From a virus: a DNA stretch of 64,000 nucleotides. Under the pieces are notes generated by a model. It had not been told where the DNA came from and made no database searches. It saw only the letters and a program-made list of their open reading frames with translations. Shown piece by piece: positions 31,589 to 59,203 of this stretch (positions are counted from its first letter, which is position 1; each line of letters begins with the position of its first letter). The position numbers were made by a program, and so were the translations under genes. Where the stretch lies: positions 54,181 through 118,180 of the IMG/VR virus record IMGVR_UViG_3300028883_000003; one strand, given 5' to 3'.

Positions 31589-34500
31589 ATGGCTGATGCT
31601 CCTTTTATTATAACTACCCAAATAGATACTAAAGGTATTAAAGCTGGGCTTGCAGAGATTGAGGCTTTGTTAGTTAAGTTTAATCCTAAGGGTTCGTTTA
31701 ATAGTCTTATAAACACTAAAGAATTAGATGTTGCTAAGTCAAAAGTTAAACAATTAACTCTTGAATTAAACAAAACCAAGGCTGCTCTTGAGAAGGCAGC
31801 AACTAATACTGGTAGGCTTGCCACAAACACTAAAAAGACCTCTAATGCTTTGGCAGATGTGTCTAGACGTGTGTTTGTTTGGGGGTCGATGTCAGCTTTA
31901 ATTTTTGGGGCATTACAAAATCTTAAAGAGTTTTATGATTTAACAATTCAAGTTAATACTTCTCTTGCAGAACTAAGAAAGGTTTTACCTAGTGATACTG
32001 ACTTTGGTGCATTAAAAGGTGAAGCATTTAAATTATCCATTGATTTTGGTACTGATCCTTTAGATGTTCTTCAGGTTTTAAAGCGTTTTGGCCAAGCTGG
32101 TTTGTCTGCTCAAGAAGCTGTTGAGGCTACCAGAACGGCTTTGCTTGCTTTAAATACTACTGGTGCTGATACTGAACAAGTGTTCAATGCTATCATTGGT
32201 GCCAACAGAATTTTTGGTATTGCTTTTGAAGATTCTGGTCGCGTGATTGACAAAATCATGAGATTACAGGCGGATCTCGCTGTTGATTCTAAAGATTTAA
32301 TTGCTTCCATTCAGGCTATTGGTCCTGCTATTACTTCGTTAGGTGGTGATATTGACGATCTTCTTTCCAACATTGCAGCTTTAGCTGAAGCGGCTCGTGT
32401 ATCAGGTAAAGAAGCAGCCAACTCCTTAAAACGTGTACTTGCTCGTTTAGTATCTAAGGAAGGTATTACTGCTCTAGAAAAATTAGGTGTTACGGTTTTT
32501 GACACAGCTAAAAACTTCAGACCTTTAAGAGACATTCTAGAAGACGTTTCAACTAAATATAAAGAAGCTTCACAGGTTGAGCAACAGCAATTAGCAGTTG
32601 TACTTGCTCAGGTTCGTCAGTATCCTAAATTAATTGCTTTGTTAAACAACATGGATAGACAGCAGGAAGCATTAGCCAAATCACAAAACGCTTATGGTGA
32701 TGCAACTATTGCTAATCAGGTTCAGTTGGATAGCTATGCAAAACAATTAAGTATTGCACAAAACCAAGTTAAAGAGTTTGGCGAGACAGCTATTTTAAAG
32801 GGTGAAATAGTAGAAAACTGGGTTGCATTTCATCAAGTTATAGGGGATTTAGCAACGGCTCTAACGTCTGTCGCCGGTCCTCTTACCAAGTTTCTTAGTT
32901 TGGCTGGTACTGCTGCTGGTGTTATTTTCTTGTCTAAGTGGGTATTGCAATTAAAATATTCATTAGCATTAACAGCAGCTGAAATGAAGGCTACTGCTGT
33001 AGCGGCAAATTTGGCTACTAGAAATGTACAAATATTTGGGTTGGCAGTGCAGTTTACTGCTAATACTTTGCGTTTGTTAACTGGTATTGGCATTGCTGTG
33101 TCTGCTCTCTTTTTAGCAATTGAAGTTGGTCGTCGTAAAGCCAACAAAGAAGAAATTCGTTATAACAAACTGATTGAACAAAGTACGGAATCTATTAAGA
33201 AGTTTAAGGATTCTCTTCGTGGGATTGCTGTTAACAATATTATTACTACGGACGTTGAGGAAAAATTTAATTCATTAACTAAATCTTTGGCAGCATATAC
33301 AAGGGCTCTTAGTATTGGACAGGCTTCTACCGAGGAATTTGTAAAATCGCTTGGCAAAACATTTGGCGTGGATGTTAGTTTGTTAAGTGAACAGCAATTA
33401 AAAGATTTACTTGAGACATTAAAGGATGTTGAAAGAGAACTTGATCCTAATATTTTACTTCCGTTCTACGATGTTGTAAATCGTGGTACAGAGGTTATGA
33501 TTAGCAATATAAATACTGGTACAGATGAATACAAAAAATTTAGAGCTGCTTTAGCCGAATATTTTGAGCCCAAAGGAATTAAAAATTATGCTGATCAATT
33601 AGCCGAATTAGAAAAACTGGAAGCTAAGAGAAGACAACAACAACTTGATACAGGAAGAACTAGTGTTTATCTACCGTCTGATTTGTCGGGTACTGGAAGA
33701 AACTTAGCTGCTTTTATTGATGGTGTTAAAGGAAGTCAGGAATCTGTTACAGCGTTATGGTTTATTGTATCTGGTTTACGTCGTACGTTAGGGTTGTCAG
33801 CTAAATCTTTTGAAGAGGTTGCTGCTTCTTCCGGTAAACTACAAGATGTCATTGGAAGATTAGACGAATTAAATACCAAATTAACAGTTTATAATGACCA
33901 AATAAAAAGAACCGGCGTTGTTTCTGCTGACTATAAAAAAACACAACAAGATTATGATGATGTATTAAAGGGTGGTGTTGATATTTTTGGCGATCTTGTT
34001 GGTATTCAAGATATTTACAAAAAAGCTTTGGATGGCCTAGTTAAGTCACAAAGTGGTGCTATCGTTCAGATAGATGCCTATTCTGGTAGAGCAAAACAGT
34101 TTGCTGTCATTATTTCTAAATTAGCTGGTGGTTTCAAAGAATACGCGGAATCGGAATTAAAGAGTTCGGGTAACGCAGCTGCTTTTGCAATTAATATTAA
34201 GGAAGGACAAAAGGCTGTTCTTGCAATGTTAAAAGCCATTGAAGCTGGAAAGGGTGGTATATTTTCTATTGACTTCAACCAGCATGCTTATTTGAAGGCT
34301 GTTAAAGCTAGCACTGCTGTTGTTTTGTCTAACTTTGAGGCACAGTTTAAGGCTATTGATGTTGTGCGTAGGGTGTTAAAGGATACAGGTTCGGCTTTTG
34401 ATATAAACCAGCAAGGATTGAATACTGTTGATACTGCTCTTAACCAATTGAACAGGCAATTAGGGTCCAACGAAGAAGAGTTAGCTAATATTAAGGTTCA

Positions 34501-46315: not shown

Positions 46316-46706
46316 ACCCAACCATTGTGTATTGCACTATCCACTGATTAGATTGCCAAGCATCAAAGCTACTTTCAACGGGGTGGTTACATTGGTGCTC
46401 AACAATTAGAGAAAGATTATTGTTAATTTTGTAATCAGCCCCAATTGTGTATCCTATTCGATAAGGAGCACCGTTTAACGTACCTGATTTAGGATAGGCC
46501 CAAGTTTCAACAGTACTGAATATGGTTAATTTGTTATAGGCACTGCTTATACCTAATTCGGCGTAATAATTAAAAGACCTGTCTTGTTTGTCAATGACTA
46601 TGGATTTAATATTTGCGTAACCAAAAGTTAATTCCCCTTTTGGTTTGCAGTTAACATGAATCGGTAATAGCACAATAATAATTATAGTAGTAATTAACTT
46701 TTTCAT
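46299..46706 (-). CDS. Small secreted outer-membrane beta-barrel-like protein
   Basis: Signal MKKLITTIIIIVLLPIHVNC; alternating amphipathic strands; C-terminal VGFKLTY with a terminal aromatic residue. Confidence 0.6.
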   Translation of the reverse strand: MKKLITTIIIIVLLPIHVNCKPKGELTFGYANIKSIVIDKQDRSFNYYAELGISSAYNKLTIFSTVETWAYPKSGTLNGAPYRIGYTIGADYKINNNLSLIVEHQCNHPVESSFDAWQSNQWIVQYTMVGFKLTY

Positions 46707-47503
46707 AATAATGGATGACTTTCTTTAATTTTTTTCTGTATGTGTTCAGGAGCTAAGTGAATATAATTTTCAGTAACGGATATGGAACTATGGTTTAAAA
46801 ATTCTTTAACGTCACTTAACATGGCCCCATTGGTTAAAAGTTCGGTAGCAATACCGTGCCTATACGCGTGGGGGTTTACATAATCATTTCCCAAGTGTCG
46901 TTTTAATTTCATTCTCAGAGAGTCTTCAGTGGCTCTCTGATTTTTATTGTTCAAAAATAGATAGCCAGAAATTCTTTCACCAATGTATTTTTTAAATGTT
47001 TCCTTTACACTGTCAGTGAGGATAGAAATATAAGGCTTCCCACCCTTCGACATCATAAAAGTAATGGTATTGTCAGAGAAGTCTTCTATTCTTAAATGGG
47101 CTAACGATGAAATACGACAGCCTGTAGTAGCTAAAATTTGTACGATTAACTTTATTTCTACATTTGAAATTTTGGGCAACAATTTTTTTGTTTCATTCGA
47201 TAAAGCCATTTTCGGTATGGAACGATGCAAAACAGGCAGACTCAAGTTATTTAAATCTTCTGGAACTTTTGGGATTTTATTTTGTAACACTAAAAACTGA
47301 GCGTACTTTCTTATACTAGCCCTTATTCGATACATAGAGTTAGGCTTTTTGTTAAGCTGTAAGATGTTGCTGGGCAAGCAGATAGAGAAATCTTCCGAGA
47401 TTACACCAGCTTTTTCTGCCAACTTTAGATCAGACAAATAGGCTCGAATGGTGTGCTCGCTTTTTCCGAGGCTTCGGAGGTAAGACTCAAATTGTTTGTA
47501 CAT
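46703..47503 (-). CDS. Tyrosine recombinase (XerC/D-like or integrase)
   Basis: True start is likely 47503 (AAGGAG ribosome binding site); TGCRIS, PHAYRH, LNHSSISVT and ENY give an intact R-H-R-H-Y catalytic set. Confidence 0.9.
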   Translation of the reverse strand: MYKQFESYLRSLGKSEHTIRAYLSDLKLAEKAGVISEDFSICLPSNILQLNKKPNSMYRIRASIRKYAQFLVLQNKIPKVPEDLNNLSLPVLHRSIPKMALSNETKKLLPKISNVEIKLIVQILATTGCRISSLAHLRIEDFSDNTITFMMSKGGKPYISILTDSVKETFKKYIGERISGYLFLNNKNQRATEDSLRMKLKRHLGNDYVNPHAYRHGIATELLTNGAMLSDVKEFLNHSSISVTENYIHLAPEHIQKKIKESHPLL

Positions 47504-47528
47504 TTTTTCTCCTTTTGTTATATTATCA

Positions 47529-47590
47529 AACACAGAAAAGTTTTTAAAAGTTCCCGGTTTTTTCGGGAACCTTTTTGTCTCGGTTGTGTT
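47529..47590. promoter_or_regulatory. Back-to-back ECF-like promoters P3 (-) and P4 (+) forming a GTTCCCG-N7-CGGGAAC palindrome
   Basis: P3: gttcccg at 47550-47556, N18, aac at 47529-47531. P4: cgggaac at 47564-47570, N17, gtt at 47588-47590. Confidence 0.6.
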
Positions 47591-47615
47591 GTAGGGGTAC
47601 GGAAAGGAGAAAGAA

Positions 47616-48005
47616 ATGAGAAAAGTAGCGATTTTAAAATGTAAAGGGTATGTTACTGACGCGGATGGGTACGACAAAAATATCAACCATTTTGTGAATG
47701 CTACCGACTTTGACGAAGTAGATGATGACACATATAGAAAGTTGTGGGATTTTTGTCGTAGAAAAAGTAAGCATAACTACAGAACAGGTGAATTTGAGAT
47801 GTATGTATTAATTGAGAAGTACGAAGAGCCTGTTTCAAAAACTATTGCTGAATACACAGAGATGGTTGAAAACGAAAAAAAGCTTGAGGCTAAAAGAAAA
47901 AAGGAATATGAAAAACAAAAAAAATTAGAGGCTAAGAAGAAGAAAGAGGCTAAGGAAGCTAAAGAACGTAAAAAGTTAGAGGAACTTAAAAAGAAGTACG
48001 GTTAA
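47616..48005 (+). CDS. Hypothetical protein with a K/E-rich C-terminus
   Basis: AGGAGA ribosome binding site; first gene of the rightward operon. Confidence 0.7.
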   Translation: MRKVAILKCKGYVTDADGYDKNINHFVNATDFDEVDDDTYRKLWDFCRRKSKHNYRTGEFEMYVLIEKYEEPVSKTIAEYTEMVENEKKLEAKRKKEYEKQKKLEAKKKKEAKEAKERKKLEELKKKYG

Positions 48006-49281: not shown

Positions 49282-49804
49282 TGCCAGTTGTTTAAGGGAA
49301 ATAGCTGAACCAGTTTTATTTGAAGAGATTTGTTTATTCCAGCAAGAGCAGGGTGAAACATATGAACTAGTTCAGGAAATGAAAGAAATATTGGCTAAAT
49401 CAGGTAATGGTTTAGGTTTGTCCGCTCCCCAAGTCGGGGTAATGAGTAGGGTGATTGTTATGAAGAGTTCTGATGAGGAGATTTTTCATGTAATTAATCC
49501 TAAAATAGTTGGGTTAGATAAAGAAAACTTATCTGTTTCTTATGAAGGCTGTTTGTCTTTGCCAACTATTTTTGCTCATGTTCACCGACCCGCACAGGTG
49601 ACTGTTGAATACAATTACACTAACCCTGTTCCTACTACGGCTGTTTTCGATGGATTAGAGGCTACTGTATTTTTGCATGAATTTGATCACTTGAATGGCA
49701 TTTTATTTGTTGATAGGTGTTTGAATAGAAATCAAAGACGGCTTATGAGCAAGCAGTTTAAATTAGAAGTTCAACAAATTGAGATATTGGAAGGTTATGA
49801 ATGA
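49259..49804 (+). CDS. def: Peptide deformylase
   Basis: All three motifs present: GLGLSAPQVG, EGCLSLP, HEFDHLNG. Confidence 0.95.
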   Translation: MRKIQTFNASCLREIAEPVLFEEICLFQQEQGETYELVQEMKEILAKSGNGLGLSAPQVGVMSRVIVMKSSDEEIFHVINPKIVGLDKENLSVSYEGCLSLPTIFAHVHRPAQVTVEYNYTNPVPTTAVFDGLEATVFLHEFDHLNGILFVDRCLNRNQRRLMSKQFKLEVQQIEILEGYE

Positions 49805-50145
49805 AGATTTTAATTTGCGGGAGTAGATCATATGAGGATTATACCCATTTTTGTTCCCAAATGACTCCTTACACTGGTCTAGCTCATACTATTATTCATG
49901 GTGGTGCACGAGGTGCTGATTCTTTAGCGGATAGGTGGGGTAAGTACTACAAAATGCATATTGAAGTTTTTAAGCCAAATTGGGATAAATATGGCAAACG
50001 GGCTGGATTTATGAGAAATCAGGAAATGATAGACACAAAACCTGATCTGGTTATTGCTTTTTGGGATGGTGTTTCAAAAGGCACCAGAGATACAATAAGC
50101 AGAGCCAAAATTAGAAAAATAGATACATTAATTATTTACGTATAA
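49801..50145 (+). CDS. SLOG-family protein (YspA/DUF2493-like)
   Basis: ILICGSR...IIHGGARGAD...W...GKRAG..RN..M...AFWDG.SKGT. Confidence 0.85.
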   Translation: MKILICGSRSYEDYTHFCSQMTPYTGLAHTIIHGGARGADSLADRWGKYYKMHIEVFKPNWDKYGKRAGFMRNQEMIDTKPDLVIAFWDGVSKGTRDTISRAKIRKIDTLIIYV

Positions 50146-50149
50146 GAAA

Positions 50150-50226
50150 GGGCGTGAAATAGGTTTCGACAGTATTTGACATGGGTTGAGTATTGGACGC
50201 CGGGGCAGTTCCGGCCACGTCCACCA
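50150..50226 (+). ncRNA. ssrA: Mini-tmRNA: tRNA-like domain only, no mRNA-like domain
   Basis: Acceptor stem GGGCGTG/CACGTCC with G3-U70; ACCA end; AAATAGGTTTCGAC tmRNA 5' motif; T-arm GCCGG-GGCAGTT-CCGGC; helix 2 closed by a 4-nt loop. Confidence 0.85.
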
Positions 50227-50241
50227 AAATAAGGACAGTAT

Positions 50242-50514
50242 ATGGACCTAACAAGGCGTGAACTAACTGACAAGATTCAGTTGCTTGGCAAGGATAAGAT
50301 TAATTGGGGTATGGTAGGTAGACTTCTAGCTGTGTTTAAGTTGCAACATGTAAATCGTTGTTGTGATTTAATGCCGGAAAAAATATGGGAAAACTTTACG
50401 CCCACTAACAAAATAAAATATCTTTGGGCTATATGTAGAAGCGAAGCAAGCAAGGATGATTATATTCGTAAGGACAAGGATAGATGTTTTAATTTAGAGG
50501 ATTTCAAACTGTAA
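50242..50514 (+). CDS. Hypothetical protein
   Basis: 90 aa, AGGAC ribosome binding site. Confidence 0.6.
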   Translation: MDLTRRELTDKIQLLGKDKINWGMVGRLLAVFKLQHVNRCCDLMPEKIWENFTPTNKIKYLWAICRSEASKDDYIRKDKDRCFNLEDFKL

Positions 50515-50538: not shown

Positions 50539-53364
50539 ATGGATATAAGTAGACAAATTTTATCTGACATTATAGTTTTTATGAAATATGCCCGTTATGA
50601 CAAAAAAAAGAAAAGACGTGAGACATGGGAAGAGATCATTGACAGATATAAAAAGATGATGATAAAGAAATATCCTAAACTTAAAGAGGAGATTGAGGAA
50701 AATTGTAAATATTTGTATGAGAAAAAAGTTCTTCCTTCGGCAAGGGCTTTACAGTTTGGTGGTAAAGCAATGGAAAAAAATCCAGTAAGGGGATTTAATT
50801 GCAGTGCTGTTTTAGCAAATACTCCAGAGGTTTTTTCGGAAGTTATGTTTTTGCTCCTTTCTGGTACTGGGGTAGGTTTTAGTGTGCAACAACATCATAT
50901 TGCCCAATTACCAGAAATTTACAAGCCTAAGAAAAAACGTAGACATCTTATTGGAGACAGTATTGAAGGTTGGGCCGAAGCCGTTGGAGTTCTTATTGAT
51001 GCATACACTGGTAACCGAAAGTCTTTACCAATATTTGATTTTAGTGACATTAGACCAAAAGGTACACCACTAAAAACTAGCGGGGGTGTAGCTCCGGGTC
51101 CTGATGATTTAAAAGTTTGTTTAGTGCATCTACAAAATATTTTGGATTCAAAAAAAGATGGGGAAAAATTAACTTCCTTAGAAGTTTTAGATATGATGTG
51201 TCATATTGCTTCTTGTGTTGTGTCTGGTGGTGTTCGTAGAAGTAGCTTATTGGCTTTGTTTTCTTTTGATGATGAGGATGTAAAGTATTGTAAAACTGGT
51301 AATTGGCAAATAGAAAATCCGCAAAGAGCAATGGTTAATATTTCTGCTTCAATTTTACGACACCAGATTAGTGAAGAAGAGTTTAAGGAATATGTTGAAA
51401 CGATTAAAAATAGTAAGTTTGGCGAGCCGGGTATATTTTTAACAAATTCAAAAAACGCACTTACCAATCCGTGTATTCCTTCTTGGGCATATGTGTTAGT
51501 CAAGAAAGATAATGATAGTTGCTTGTCTACTATTAAAGATTTAAAAATTGGGGATTTTATTTGGACAAAAGAAGGCTGGTCCAAGGTTATTAATATTCAA
51601 TCTTCTGGTACTCAAGAGGTGTATAAGTATGGAACTACTTATGGTTCATTATACTGTACTAAAGAACACAATGTTTTATCAAACGGTGTTAAAGTAATGG
51701 CAGCCGATGCAGATGTTTTAGATGTTTTAACTGGTCCTGTTGAGGTTTCCGGAGAACTGAATCCTAAAGATGTTATGGATGGTTTGGTTATTGGTGATGG
51801 GTCAGTACACAAGGCATCAAATAATTTAGTTTATTTAGGTATAGGGACCAGAGATCAAGATTATTTTGATTCTGAAATAAAGGGATTGATTAAGACATAT
51901 AGGCCGGGGTTATCTGAGGTGTCTTATGAAATTGACACAACGGTTAGTTTTAAAGAGTTACCAAAAACATATGAAAGAACAATCCCTATTCGTTTTGTTA
52001 ATGGAAATAGTCTAAAGAAGAGAGGATTTTTAAGGGGTTTATTTTCTGCTAATGGTTCAGTTTGTGGTAATAGAGTTACCTTAAAGGCAACATCTAAAGT
52101 ATTAGTGGATCAAGTTCAATTTTTATTATCTTCTTTAGGTATTCATTCATACTATACTACAAATAAAGAACAGGAAATAAAATTTGTCAACGGTGTTTAT
52201 AGATGCAAACAATCTTATGATGTTAATATAACGTCCGACCGAGAGGTATTTACTAAACTCATTGGGTTTATCCAAAAATACAAGATGGATAAAATTAAAT
52301 TGGTTCCAACACCAAACATTAAAAATTCATATGATGTAAAAGAAAGGGAATTAGTTTCTATAGAGGAAGTATTTGATATCACAGTTGATAATACGTCTCA
52401 TACATTTTGGTGCAATGGTTTTAATATTTTTAACTGTGGAGAAGCAGCATTATCGGAAGGGACGATGTTTTGCAATTTAACATCAATTAACACAACAGAT
52501 ATTAATGACCAAAATGAGTTTAATCAACGGGCGAGAGTGGCTTCGTTTTTTGGAACATTACAAGCTGGTTTTACAGATTTCCACTTGTTAAGAGAGGTGT
52601 GGAAAGAGGAGACTGAAAAGGACGCTCTCATTGGTGTAAGTTTAGCGGGGGTTGCATCTGGTTGTATTTTAAATTTAGATGTAAAAGAAGCTGCTACCAA
52701 TGTTCTAGAAGAAAACGAACGTGTGGCTAAACTAATTGGCATTAACAAAGCGGCCAGAACAAATCTTGAAAAACCGGATGGAACTGTGTCCTCAGTACTT
52801 GGCTGTTCGTCTGGTATACACGCTTATCATTCTCCCTATTATATTCGTCGTGTGCGAGTGTTAAAAACAGAATCAATATACCATTATCTTAAAGATAATC
52901 ACCCTGAGTTAATTGAAGATGATGTAATGAAGCCAAGTATTCAAGCAGTTATATCAATTCCTATTAAAGCACCTGATGGTGCTATAACACGAAGAGAAAC
53001 AGCTTTGCAATTGTTTAATCGCATCAAACGGTTGTATAAAGATTGGGTTTTACCGGGGCATAGACACGGACAAAATACCCATTCTATTTCTTGTACAGTT
53101 ACAGTGAAAAAACACGAATGGGATAAAGTTAAAGAGTGGATGTGGGAAAATCGGAACAATTATGCTTCAATTACGTTGTTCCCTTATGAAGAACCGGATT
53201 ACCCTCAGCTTCCTTTTGAGGAAATCACTGAAGAAAAATACAACGAATTGATAAAAACATTGAAACAAATTGATCTTTCCCGTGTTATAGAAGAACAGGA
53301 CAATACAAAACTACAGAGCGAGGTAGCCTGCTCCGGTGGAAGTTGTACAATAACAGAGGTTTAA
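50539..53364 (+). CDS. nrdJ: Class II (B12-dependent) ribonucleotide reductase with an intein
   Basis: KYAR...RETW, GFNC, GGVRRS, TNP|CGE, KPDGT and C-terminal ACSGGSC; no ATP cone. Confidence 0.92.
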   Translation: MDISRQILSDIIVFMKYARYDKKKKRRETWEEIIDRYKKMMIKKYPKLKEEIEENCKYLYEKKVLPSARALQFGGKAMEKNPVRGFNCSAVLANTPEVFSEVMFLLLSGTGVGFSVQQHHIAQLPEIYKPKKKRRHLIGDSIEGWAEAVGVLIDAYTGNRKSLPIFDFSDIRPKGTPLKTSGGVAPGPDDLKVCLVHLQNILDSKKDGEKLTSLEVLDMMCHIASCVVSGGVRRSSLLALFSFDDEDVKYCKTGNWQIENPQRAMVNISASILRHQISEEEFKEYVETIKNSKFGEPGIFLTNSKNALTNPCIPSWAYVLVKKDNDSCLSTIKDLKIGDFIWTKEGWSKVINIQSSGTQEVYKYGTTYGSLYCTKEHNVLSNGVKVMAADADVLDVLTGPVEVSGELNPKDVMDGLVIGDGSVHKASNNLVYLGIGTRDQDYFDSEIKGLIKTYRPGLSEVSYEIDTTVSFKELPKTYERTIPIRFVNGNSLKKRGFLRGLFSANGSVCGNRVTLKATSKVLVDQVQFLLSSLGIHSYYTTNKEQEIKFVNGVYRCKQSYDVNITSDREVFTKLIGFIQKYKMDKIKLVPTPNIKNSYDVKERELVSIEEVFDITVDNTSHTFWCNGFNIFNCGEAALSEGTMFCNLTSINTTDINDQNEFNQRARVASFFGTLQAGFTDFHLLREVWKEETEKDALIGVSLAGVASGCILNLDVKEAATNVLEENERVAKLIGINKAARTNLEKPDGTVSSVLGCSSGIHAYHSPYYIRRVRVLKTESIYHYLKDNHPELIEDDVMKPSIQAVISIPIKAPDGAITRRETALQLFNRIKRLYKDWVLPGHRHGQNTHSISCTVTVKKHEWDKVKEWMWENRNNYASITLFPYEEPDYPQLPFEEITEEKYNELIKTLKQIDLSRVIEEQDNTKLQSEVACSGGSCTITEV
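51472..52434 (+). mobile_element. Intein (321 aa) with a LAGLIDADG homing endonuclease
   Basis: Starts at Cys after TNP and ends at IFN before the extein Cys. Block B CTKEH; DGLVIGDGSV and FLRGLFSANGSV; block F VFDITV. Confidence 0.92.
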
Positions 53365-55867: not shown

Positions 55868-58800
55868 ATGAGGACAGCACATATAGCAGACATCCATATT
55901 AGTGACTCTCGTATTGAAGAATTCGAACTTATGCTACAAAAATTAGGGGAAGATATTAAGTCGCATTCTCCTGATTTGGTAGTGTTTTCTGGAGATATGT
56001 TTATCCACAGGGATAAGCTCAGCCCTAAACAAGTGCAGTTGACTAGAAAATTCTTTCATAAAATACTGGATGGTTTAAAGGTTTTAATTATTCCGGGTAA
56101 CCACGATGCCAGTATGTCTGAACAAAAAGTTGATTCTTTAACTGCAATATTTTCACATGATGCTAATATTAAGGTTTATAATTATGTGGGCGATTTTATT
56201 GATATTGGTAATTATCGGTATCATGCGTTTCCTTATCCGTCTAAAATAGAATTGATAAGATTAGAAATTGATGATATCGCTAAAATATATTCTGATAACA
56301 GATTATTTGATTCTTTTCAACTGTCCGATGATAAGAAAAATGTTCTTCTATACCATGGTGTTTTAGAAAACTTTAAATTGGCTGGTTATATTGCCTCAGA
56401 AGAGGCCATTGGTGTTGGTAAAGAAATGGTTATTCCTGAATCATTTTGGAAAAAATTCGATGCTGTTTTAGCCGGACACTTACACGGACACCAACAAATA
56501 GGGAGTGCTGTATATCCGGGTTGTCCTTTCCCATTAACATATGCTGATTCAGAAGATACTGGCTGGGTGTTGTGGGAAGACTGTACCCCAACTTTTATAA
56601 CATTGGAAAAAGAATATCCCTATACTACCTTGGATATTGGTAATCTATCCACGTACAAGGCTGGTATTAATCAAGAAGCTGAACTACGATTAAAAAAAAT
56701 ACCTAATCTAAAGAACACCAGACTGCGTGTTAAGTACACTTTAATGGAGTCCCAAGCTGGTGAATTGGATCATACCATTATTGGTAAGTTTTATTCCGGT
56801 GCTAAAGAAATAAAGATTCAGCCAGTGCATAAACCAGATAGATTTACTATTTCACCTTTGGAATTAAGTACGTTTAAAGACAGTTCACTACAAGGGATAA
56901 TTGACAACCATATTAAGGAATTGAATTATAATCCAGAAGTAAAAACTATCTCTGATAAAATTGAGGAACGTGTAAAAAGTCAGTACAAAGATGAAAAAGA
57001 TACTGGCATTCATTTTAAGCCAAGTAAGTTGAGATTAAAAAACTTTAAATGTTTTGGAGAAGATTCTCCAGAGGTAGATTTTGGGACACTTTCTTCTGTT
57101 GTGGGGGTATTTGGTAAGAATAGAACTGGTAAAAGTTCATTAGTCGAGGCCATAATTTGGGCCTTATTTGGGACTACTGTAAGGAATAATGATGTACGGT
57201 CGGTCATTAGAAATGGGCAAACATCATGTGTAGTTGAGTTGGAATTTTTTTCCCAAGCTGCACTATACAAAATATACAGAGAGCGTAGGGGTAGTGGGCT
57301 TACTACTAATTCTTCTTTGCTATTGTATAAATGGATAAACGATAATTGGGTTGATGTGAGTGGGGCCGGGGTTAATGACACACAAAAAACTATTAGTGAA
57401 TTAGTTGGCACTTTGGAAATGTTTGTTTCGACGGTGTATTCTCCCCAAAATGGTATTGACCGCTTAGTAAACAAAAAGCCAAGTGAACGCAAACAGATTA
57501 TTTTAGATTGTTTGCAAATAGACGTGTTGGAGCGTAGACAAAAAGAAATATTAAAACTGAAGAGTGAAGTTACCGCAACCATAAACACCCTTAAAGGACA
57601 GTTGGTTGCTTACTCTAGCCAATTGGATAGATTATTATCGAATAAACCAGAACTAATCATTACAGAATTTGAAAGCTTGCTTCGTAATGAAAAGATAAAC
57701 CAACAACAGCTTTTATCAAAAATTGAATCTTTATCTTCTAAGCTTTCCGACTACACTGAGTTACAAGCAGAGAATGAGAAAATAAACACAACTTTATCAG
57801 AACTTCGTAAAGAAATAGTTGAGCTACAAAAAAAGCAAAGTAACAAAAAGGAAGAGGTAGAAAGATTTAAGGCTATAGCCTCTGACAAAACAGTTATTGA
57901 ACGAGGACTACAGCGTTTAAAGATTTATAAAGAGGAACTAGAAAAGCATGTTAAAAACTTTGCTGATTTAACTAAGGCAAAGAATGAAAAAACTCAATTT
58001 GAAAAACAGCTTGAAGAATTATCTAGGGCCCATAGAAATACCATTTCGGCTTTGAATACTTCTAAAAATGCATTGATACAGCAACTTCATAGCTATACGG
58101 AATTGGATTGTCCTAAGCCTGATTGCCCTTTGAATCTTAAAGTACAAAAGGAAAAGGATAAGATTAGGGTTAAAATGGAAGAGGCCGATAACGCCATTGT
58201 TTTGGCAAGAACAGAACAAGAAATAGTAATAAACCAAATTAAGGAAAAAATTATTAGTTTGCAATCAGATATTGACAATTCGAATTATAGTAGCAAAGAA
58301 CACTTAGCTTGTGTGAGTGCTTTTAATGAGGAGAACAATAACAAGTGGCATGAACTTGAGGCTAAGATTAATTCCAAAGAAGAGGTTTTGTCTAATATGC
58401 TTGAACTAATAACAGCATATGGAAGACAGGTTTCCAGTTTAATTGATAAGAGGGACGAATTAGTAAGGAGAAGAACTGTTTTAGCAGAAAAGCTAGCTAC
58501 TATTGATAGCTATAAATATGAATTGGAAACAGCTAGGCTAAATTTGTCTGAATGTAACAAGAAAATTTCTAAATGTGAGTCACATATAAGTAAAGCCAAA
58601 CACGATATTGAAGATACAAAGAGGTTGCGTAGTGAAGTAGGTCAGATAGACACTAAGCTGAAGAAAGCAGAATTATATTATACCCATTGTGCCCATTATG
58701 CAGAAATTGTGAGCAAAAAAGGTATTGTATTCCAGATAGTGGATAAGGCTTTGCCAACGATTGAAAAGTTTGCCCAAAATCTATTGTCTGAAACAACAAG

Positions 58801-59203
58801 CGGTTCACTATCAATTCAGGTTACTAACCATAAGGACAACAGTACCGCTAAAGACAATGTTATGATACAGATAACAGATGCTAAAGGAACCAGAGATATA
58901 TTAGAAAGCTCTGGTTCTGAATTATTCTTGGCCTCTTTAGCTTTACGGGCAGCTATGTCACACTTGTTGTCATTAAGGACTGGTAGTAAGGTTGAAATGT
59001 TTGTGATAGATGAGGGTATGGGAGTATTAGACGACGAGGGTATCGTTATTGCAAAGGATATGTTTAAGCAATTAGGTAAGGAATTTAATCAAGTGTTATT
59101 TATCACCCACGTAGGAGAATTAAAAGACGTAGCTCAAAGTATTATTGAAATTTATAGTGATAATTTGATATCCAACTTTAACATAAAGGATAAAATGGTA
59201 TGA
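55868..59203 (+). CDS. Fused SbcD-SbcC (Mre11-Rad50; T4 gp47-gp46-like) nuclease/ATPase
   Basis: DIH, GD, GNHD and GHLH phosphoesterase motifs, then GKNRTGKS, coiled coil, CPKPDC hook, SSGSE, FVIDEG and ITH in one frame. Confidence 0.92.
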   Translation: MRTAHIADIHISDSRIEEFELMLQKLGEDIKSHSPDLVVFSGDMFIHRDKLSPKQVQLTRKFFHKILDGLKVLIIPGNHDASMSEQKVDSLTAIFSHDANIKVYNYVGDFIDIGNYRYHAFPYPSKIELIRLEIDDIAKIYSDNRLFDSFQLSDDKKNVLLYHGVLENFKLAGYIASEEAIGVGKEMVIPESFWKKFDAVLAGHLHGHQQIGSAVYPGCPFPLTYADSEDTGWVLWEDCTPTFITLEKEYPYTTLDIGNLSTYKAGINQEAELRLKKIPNLKNTRLRVKYTLMESQAGELDHTIIGKFYSGAKEIKIQPVHKPDRFTISPLELSTFKDSSLQGIIDNHIKELNYNPEVKTISDKIEERVKSQYKDEKDTGIHFKPSKLRLKNFKCFGEDSPEVDFGTLSSVVGVFGKNRTGKSSLVEAIIWALFGTTVRNNDVRSVIRNGQTSCVVELEFFSQAALYKIYRERRGSGLTTNSSLLLYKWINDNWVDVSGAGVNDTQKTISELVGTLEMFVSTVYSPQNGIDRLVNKKPSERKQIILDCLQIDVLERRQKEILKLKSEVTATINTLKGQLVAYSSQLDRLLSNKPELIITEFESLLRNEKINQQQLLSKIESLSSKLSDYTELQAENEKINTTLSELRKEIVELQKKQSNKKEEVERFKAIASDKTVIERGLQRLKIYKEELEKHVKNFADLTKAKNEKTQFEKQLEELSRAHRNTISALNTSKNALIQQLHSYTELDCPKPDCPLNLKVQKEKDKIRVKMEEADNAIVLARTEQEIVINQIKEKIISLQSDIDNSNYSSKEHLACVSAFNEENNNKWHELEAKINSKEEVLSNMLELITAYGRQVSSLIDKRDELVRRRTVLAEKLATIDSYKYELETARLNLSECNKKISKCESHISKAKHDIEDTKRLRSEVGQIDTKLKKAELYYTHCAHYAEIVSKKGIVFQIVDKALPTIEKFAQNLLSETTSGSLSIQVTNHKDNSTAKDNVMIQITDAKGTRDILESSGSELFLASLALRAAMSHLLSLRTGSKVEMFVIDEGMGVLDDEGIVIAKDMFKQLGKEFNQVLFITHVGELKDVAQSIIEIYSDNLISNFNIKDKMV

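Follow-up and report, generated by a model that had tools for sequence, protein, structure and literature searches.

A one-piece, tag-less mini-tmRNA gene in a complete phage genome and its relatives among viral contigs

Gene neighbourhood and anatomy of the 77-nt element

The stretch of DNA analysed here (the window) covers the rightmost 64 kb of a complete phage genome of 118,180 bp with direct terminal repeats (DTR), a G+C content of 35%, and nine tRNA genes, all of them outside the window. The large terminase subunit (TerL) encoded in the window is nearest to Bacillus phage terminases, at an identity of only 25%. Shine-Dalgarno-like sites precede 25 of 37 genes, a count that speaks weakly against a Bacteroidota host. 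On the plus strand, a peptide deformylase gene is followed by a gene of the YspA/SLOG family (49801-50145; Pfam PF10686, 1.7e-13). The stop codon of the SLOG gene lies 4 nt before the first nucleotide, G1, of the element described here (50150-50226, plus strand). An ORF of 90 aa, taken from the ORF list, comes next on the same strand (50242-50514). Its ATG stands 15 nt after the CCA encoded at the end of the element and is preceded, at a distance of 6 nt, by AAGGA; the ORF gave no family match and has no relatives among viral contigs. Genes for a class II ribonucleotide reductase (RNR) with a LAGLIDADG intein, DnaB, a ClpP-family protease, an SbcCD fusion, and RecA then follow in this order. 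The reductase, which is B12-dependent, spans 50539-53364 (941 aa) and carries the LAGLIDADG homing-endonuclease domain of its intein at approximately residues 490-570 (PF14528, PF05204). The fusion is a single ORF of 1111 aa (55868-59203) that joins an SbcD-like phosphoesterase to an SbcC-like ATPase.

A tyrosine integrase gene (46703-47731; PF00589, 2.7e-24) is located 2.4 kb upstream of the element on the minus strand. It occurs in a DTR phage of otherwise lytic look, with its own RNR, DnaB, RecA, SbcCD, and nine tRNAs. At the divergent junction, a hairpin, GTTCCCGG...CGGGAAC, is found at 47550-47570. No promoter-like or terminator-like sites above chance flank the 77-nt element. Its tight packing after the SLOG stop codon, combined with the lack of a promoter or terminator signal of its own, implies co-transcription with the surrounding genes and subsequent processing. 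A search of the complete phage genome for an SmpB gene found none.

In the first-pass annotation, the element had been described as a tmRNA reduced to its tRNA-like domain, and each anatomical item listed there, from the acceptor stem to the T-arm, was recovered in place. The 5' strand of the acceptor stem, GGGCGTG (50150-50156, beginning G1-G2-G3), forms seven of seven pairs with the 3' strand CACGTCC (50216-50222). This pairing yields G3:U70, and A73 with an encoded CCA (ACCA, 50223-50226) completes the 3' end. The D-loop analogue AAATAGGTTTCGAC (50157-50170) lacks a D-stem, ends in GGUUUCGAC, and matches the alphaproteobacterial consensus GAAAuAGGAUCGAC. Helix 2 is a hairpin of 10 bp, four of them G.U, formed by AGTATTTGAC (50171-50180) and GTTGAGTATT (50185-50194) and capped by ATGG. 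A GGAC linker (50195-50198), the conserved elbow motif of tmRNAs that is also present in alphaproteobacterial members, leads into the T-arm GCCGG-GGCAGTT-CCGGC (50199-50215), which consists of a 5-bp stem and a 7-nt loop of the alphaproteobacterial type. The minimum free energy fold reproduces the same three-helix structure (-29.7 kcal/mol, z -2.4).

All features of the tRNA-like domain are therefore present, namely the 7-bp acceptor stem, G3:U70, A73, the CCA end, the stemless D-loop with GGNUUCGAC, the GGAC linker, and the 5-bp T-stem with a loop of seven nucleotides, which reads GGCAGUU instead of UUCRANU. The mRNA-like domain, with its resume codon, tag frame, and stop codon, is absent, and just 24 nt of hairpin separate the two tRNA-like halves where a full tmRNA holds roughly 300 nt of mRNA-like domain and pseudoknots. 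Pseudoknots PK1-PK4 are likewise missing; 77 nt leaves no room for them, and the fold is made of three simple helices.

The model of standard tmRNA (RF00023) aligned globally, over model positions 1-374, to exactly 50150-50226 with 46.2 bits (E 1.6e-18), so that the Infernal comparison suggested in the first-pass annotation fits the whole 77 nt. The score falls 0.8 bit below the gathering threshold of 47, a shortfall that is expected because the molecule lacks four fifths of the model. At the element, neither ARAGORN in default mode nor Rfam at gathering thresholds reported anything, and the organellar model RF02544 returned no match at E values up to 10. ARAGORN, which had also been proposed as a check, did not return a one-piece gene at any setting used: the default run made no call, and a relaxed threshold gave a permuted call that draws on sequence downstream of the element. 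Two further models behaved similarly in E-value mode. RF04321 (permuted tmRNA, cut-off 47) scored 33.3 bits and RF01849 (alphaproteobacterial tmRNA, cut-off 50) scored 26.8-30 bits, both on 50189-50277. These permuted calls arise because a degenerate second copy of the 5' half, GGCGTGAACTAACTGAC, lies at 50255-50271 on the plus strand, 28 nt after the CCA, and is taken as the 5' strand by RF04321, RF01849, and relaxed ARAGORN. This copy resembles the true 5' half at an empirical p of ~0.02 and may be a relic or a product of chance.

If the permuted calls were correct, the locus would encode a two-piece, circularly permuted tmRNA with an acceptor piece at 50189-50226, a coding piece starting near 50254, and a tag frame inside 50242-50514. 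The alignments of RF04321 and RF01849 take this form, relaxed ARAGORN adds a tag, AKQARMIIFVRTRIDVLI, and two-piece tmRNAs are frequent in marine phages (PMC9004378). Even so, this arrangement is scarcely tenable here. Both model scores are far under their cut-offs and also under the one-piece score, and the downstream 5' strand would place an A1.C72 mismatch in the acceptor stem and supply a degenerate D-loop without the GG-UUCGAC motif, whereas the upstream 5' half is perfect, with G1, all seven pairs, and GAAAUAGGUUUCGAC. The presumed tag is not tmRNA-like, is marked as unidentified by ARAGORN, and falls within an ORF that has a Shine-Dalgarno site. In true permuted genes (L343 and L467 in our collection), the downstream 5' strand is perfect, and no mini-tmRNA relative shows the downstream copy. 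A search of the complete genome with tmRNA models found no second tmRNA piece and no coding piece; the presence of a separate coding piece would, according to the first-pass annotation, have refuted its proposal. Identity as a tRNA-Ala was rejected as well, given that ARAGORN made no such call and an anticodon arm is missing. A decayed tRNA-Ala was equally discarded, since the phage's own tRNA-Ala (genome positions 32922-32994) has a canonical TTCGATC T-loop and unrelated stems. The element is a one-piece tmRNA in which a hairpin has taken the place of the mRNA-like domain and pseudoknots; the end-to-end fit to RF00023, the absence of a coding piece elsewhere in the genome, and covariation in relatives bear out the original description.

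A family of mini-tmRNAs in phages

Relatives were collected by pattern scans of IMG/VR and metagenome contigs. A first, loose pattern scan returned mostly chance matches, so a script was used to keep only candidates whose 5' acceptor strand and T-stem matched. At least 99 distinct relatives of 64-89 nt make up the resulting family; all are one-piece and tag-less, and nearly all stem from viral contigs. One initial member, L343, proved to be a true permuted tmRNA; it is excluded from the tally of 99 but still forms one of the 11 rows of the alignment described below (A1). In L343 (749-817, minus strand, viral contig), the coding piece of the permuted gene begins only 2 nt after the CCA of the acceptor piece, which makes for an unusually short intervening loop.

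No near-identical copy of the window element was found in any collection searched, and BLAST of the element with its surroundings against 50,697 phage records yielded no close relatives. A related element used as query matched phiCbK-like phages over 18 nt, but this match falls in a protein gene and was set aside as chance. The nearest relatives among the matches listed form a low-G+C group of 72 nt (L035, L471, and L473). They share the D-loop, a short hairpin, and the GGCAGUU loop, and display compensatory changes in all three helices.

The search for covariation in related phages, which the first-pass annotation had called for, gave a clear result. A1 comprises 11 sequences that share the T-loop type of the window element; 95% of its cells are paired, and both sides are changed in 13 of the 17 pairs. 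None of 500 shuffles performed as well, and slid controls reached 42-48%. The five outer pairs of helix 2 are all changed on both sides, and the T-stem is fully paired (100%), with four of its five pairs changed on both sides. The only A3:U70 cell of A1 comes from the permuted L343. UCGAC and GGAC are constant in the aligned set, although both belonged to the search pattern. For the whole set, stems were counted by segment parsing; a second MAFFT alignment (A2) was dropped, as three rows were misaligned. Among the 99 matches listed, acceptor and T stems are approximately 100% canonical, with 4-5 pair types at variable positions, and 82 of them have an insert closed by 4 bp or more, a closure reached by 2.3% of shuffled inserts. 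Sequence types from the one pattern that did not require G3:U70 and A73-CCA retain both in seven of seven cases. The fold exceeds chance, and the family is conserved as a unit in independent phages with compensatory changes.

Two additional groups of sequences emerged from the scans. A 'long' class of minis (~78-85 nt; L364, L454, L348, L134, and many others, as well as mycobacteriophage DS6A, L468:579-661) carries an insert of ~29 nt with (U/A)AAA(G/A)CC...GG inside the closing helix. The AAGCC or AAACC of this motif is complementary to GGUUU in the D-loop and is absent from the short form in the window; it may represent a conserved extra helix or a pseudoknot. About 25 viral contigs (L313-L338 and similar) contain AATTGGACA-TTGGG-GGCAGTA-CCCAA-CGCCTCC-ACCA with no upstream 5' acceptor strand. 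They probably represent the acceptor pieces of phage tmRNAs in two pieces, of the kind found in pelagiphages and Melnitz.

Genomic context is also recurrent. Minis share the orientation of the adjacent genes and begin 0-35 nt past a stop codon, both in the window and in the four further sequence types inspected. Among the matches listed, a class II RNR gene lies 0.5-4 kb downstream in 22 loci of nine types, DnaB is encoded just upstream in two types, and about a quarter of the minis have a tRNA gene within 500 nt. Minis thus recur in replication and nucleotide-metabolism modules. A conserved deformylase/mini-tmRNA/ClpP module is not supported, given that homologues of the deformylase and ClpP of the window are not found near other minis; a ClpP-family gene stands two genes downstream of the mini in one other type. 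In the abundant L121 type, the neighbouring RNR is closest to roseophage and rhizobiophage genes. Homing-endonuclease genes (HNH/DUF559-like, NUMOD3) adjoin minis in two other phages (L035:4989-5645 and L167:527-1204, both minus strand), and in L035 a tRNA gene directly follows the mini.

The nearby integrase raises the question of whether the element is an attP site, or a relic of integration into a host ssrA gene, whose 3' half would serve as the common core. Such a role could coexist with an RNA function, and tmRNA genes are common integration targets (PMC10865867). Several observations nevertheless make it very improbable. For an attP core, the 3' part of the gene would be enough, whereas here the 5' strand is perfect and is accompanied by the D-loop and a closing hairpin that covary in relatives. 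Exact matches to the 25-nt 3' half were sought in 185,579 species genomes and 241 million metagenome records, and none was found, although these collections may not include the host. A tyrosine integrase is lacking from a complete DTR phage of 116 kb that carries a related mini, and likewise from three partial genomes; DS6A integrates at tRNA-Lys rather than at ssrA; and the mini-tmRNA of the window is not adjacent to int. An attP relic, which the first-pass annotation had raised against its own proposal, is accordingly unlikely, chiefly in view of the missing 25-mer match and the integrase-less phage with a relative.

Relation to known tmRNAs and the alphaproteobacterial-type elbow

The kind of molecule is already known. 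DS6A carries a tmRNA listed as 'TLD only' (PMC4131195, PMC11915505), as the first-pass annotation had stated, which corresponds to the 'standard, no CDS' class (JN698994, 28478-28560; tmRNA Website tmID 11587; Mao et al. 2009 as cited in PMC4131195 and PMC11915505). Both genes are phage-encoded and one-piece, with G3:U70, A73, and a stemless D-loop ending in TCGAC. In both, a closing helix replaces the mRNA-like domain, and tag frame and pseudoknots are missing. Each also lies directly after a stop codon in a replication module: the DS6A mini starts 10 nt past the gp33 stop, between gp33 and DNA polymerase III, and that of the window precedes RNR. The two differ in length and detail. The DS6A gene measures 83 nt. 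Its 30-nt insert bears AAAACCGCACGCGG, the motif of the long minis, its T-loop is the canonical TTCGATT, its linker reads GCAC, and its 3' end (ACTA) does not encode CCA, whereas the window element has a plain 10-bp hairpin, GGCAGUU, GGAC, and an encoded CCA. Beyond shared tmRNA motifs, no sequence relationship is detectable between them.

Tag-less tmRNAs are known from organelles as well. The statement that jakobid mitochondria hold tmRNAs without the mRNA-like domain agrees with the literature, in which both mitochondrial and plastid tmRNAs without a tag frame are described (PMC11915505). Those of jakobid and oomycete mitochondria (RF02544) and the ~65-bp genes of Mallomonadaceae plastids likewise contain little beyond a tRNA-like domain, and the mitochondrial forms descend from an alphaproteobacterial-type tmRNA (PMC11915505). 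In contrast to the viral gene proposed here to act on a host system, organellar tmRNAs work with nucleus-encoded SmpB in organelle quality control. Phages also carry full-length tmRNAs (Bxz1-like mycobacteriophages and Bacillus phage G, or the two-piece ssrA of Melnitz and pelagimyophages), phage-borne ssrA homologues that are equally presumed to act on host trans-translation (PMC4131195, PMC9004378). Tag frame and pseudoknots are kept in these genes, which ARAGORN and Rfam detect, whereas the mini of the window has no coding part and escapes both programs at default settings.

The elbow of the window element differs from that of DS6A. A GGCRGUN T-loop together with a D-loop of the form GAAAUAGG(A/U)UCGAC is typical of alphaproteobacterial tmRNA, according to the RF01849 consensus and to ~115 alphaproteobacterial genes recovered in a genome scan; the resemblance noted at first reading is borne out by both. 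The two-piece tmRNAs of this group (RF01849, RF04321) share with the window gene the T-loop, GGAC, the D-loop, and the set of alanine identity elements. Their genes are permuted, with an acceptor piece, a loop, and then a coding piece with pseudoknots and a tag frame that ends in a stop codon (e.g., L467), and all ~115 scanned genes are of this two-piece form. The window gene, unlike them, has the standard order, a single piece, and no coding part. Among the 99 minis listed, about a dozen carry the alpha-type T-loop, while the others, like DS6A, have the canonical UUCRANU. Of the 401 alphaproteobacterial genomes sampled, one had the exact GGCAGTT loop, which also occurred in some high-GC metagenome ssrA genes. 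The alpha-type T-loop might not match the host of the phage.

Alphaproteobacterial two-piece ssrA genes (L192-L311, a sample made up mostly of Sphingomonadales) showed a conserved CCGGTTTCGACCGG hairpin in the acceptor piece, ~40 nt upstream of GGAC. This hairpin mimics the UUCGAC motif. A general scan of bacterial genomes was swamped by such host two-piece genes and is uninformative on bacterial minis.

A one-piece gene with an alpha-type elbow implies re-permutation. There is a precedent in Jakoba libera mitochondria, where a permuted tmRNA gene has returned to one-piece order (PMC11915505). The downstream half at 50255-50271 could be the scar of such an event, with the caveat that the p value is only ~0.02 and that other members lack the copy. 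An extended version of this scenario would have the alpha-type subgroup descend from a two-piece ssrA captured from an alphaproteobacterium and then re-permuted, with 50255-50271 as the scar. Instead of being a passive decoy, the RNA would, once charged with alanine, work without a template and extend stalled chains at the C-terminus by one or more alanines. This would give the phage its own substitute for SsrA tagging, which might feed the phage ClpP-family protease. We regard this combination as speculative and unlikely. The subgroup itself, defined by the alpha-type elbow and the plain hairpin, is undescribed and counts about a dozen sequence types among the matches listed.

Proposed action on host trans-translation and its meaning

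The tmRNA-SmpB pair is the main system of ribosome rescue and protein tagging in bacteria, and it is a drug target. We consider the element, with moderate confidence, to be a functional phage gene for a one-piece, tag-less mini-tmRNA that competes with the host tmRNA for SmpB and stalled ribosomes. Under this proposal, the mini would be transcribed together with the deformylase-SLOG-RNR operon, cut by RNase P at G1, and trimmed at its 3' end to the encoded CCA. The host alanyl-tRNA synthetase (AlaRS) would charge it through G3:U70 and A73, host SmpB would bind through the UUCGAC/GGAC elbow, and EF-Tu would deliver the complex to ribosomes stalled on broken mRNAs. Lacking a resume codon, a tag, and a stop codon, the mini would there compete with host tmRNA, and the predicted outcome in infection is less SsrA tagging and less tag-directed proteolysis. 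An inhibitory mechanism is preferred because a molecule of this kind has been reported to inhibit endogenous tmRNA in E. coli, perhaps by titration of SmpB (Mao et al. 2009, as relayed in PMC4131195 and PMC11915505). By analogy, the mini-tmRNA probably interferes with the host rescue-and-tagging system.

The reported inhibition was, according to the account in PMC4131195, independent of chargeability. A pure decoy consequently does not explain the strict conservation of G3:U70. Since the charging determinants are strictly kept, the mini-tmRNA probably acts on the ribosome itself, beyond the role of a passive SmpB sponge; sequence conservation is the ground for this view.

The same conservation can be read in favour of rescue without tagging, which the first-pass annotation had put forward next to an SmpB decoy as a candidate role, and in which a charged mini with SmpB would enter stalled ribosomes, accept the nascent chain, and free the ribosomes without an SsrA degron. 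Several routes could then clear the peptidyl-RNA: drop-off with peptidyl-tRNA hydrolase, the action of ArfB or ArfA-RF2, or repeated alanine addition. G3:U70, A73, the encoded CCA, and the stacked acceptor and T helices are strictly conserved in the family and needless for SmpB titration (PMC4131195), and tag-less mitochondrial tmRNAs, conserved alongside SmpB, are thought to help with incomplete mRNAs (PMC11915505). This explanation is possible yet doubtful, as no release mechanism is encoded and the sole experiment cited for the TLD-only class reports inhibition. A simpler role would be that of an RNase P punctuation element, whose fold cuts the polycistronic transcript between the SLOG gene and the 90-aa ORF-RNR genes and so sets different mRNA stabilities, the released RNA being roleless. 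The close spacing of the element, 4 nt from the preceding stop codon and 15 nt to the following ATG, and the lack of a dedicated promoter or terminator suit such a function, and relatives show the same tight packing. Processing, however, needs only an acceptor/T minihelix, so that the conserved UUCGAC, GGAC, G3:U70, and tmRNA-type T-loop would be left unexplained, and we hold punctuation as the sole function to be quite improbable.

The window element adds one more gene to a phage family that is large and for the most part unannotated. In the curated tmRNA database, no more than nine sequences are classed as 'standard, no CDS', and phage tmRNAs of every kind number 79 (PMC11915505). Set against this number, the at least 99 minis recovered from a few scans indicate that phages seem to manipulate trans-translation by means of a tiny RNA far more often than has been recorded. 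Standard annotation misses these genes: at the window element ARAGORN is silent and Rfam falls 0.8 bit short. The subgroup described here combines such reduction with an elbow type otherwise seen only in two-piece alphaproteobacterial and mitochondrial tmRNAs. As such, the mini-tmRNA offers a compact natural probe of what SmpB and the ribosome need from the tRNA-like domain, of whether charging matters, and of the fate of a ribosome that receives a tmRNA without a message.
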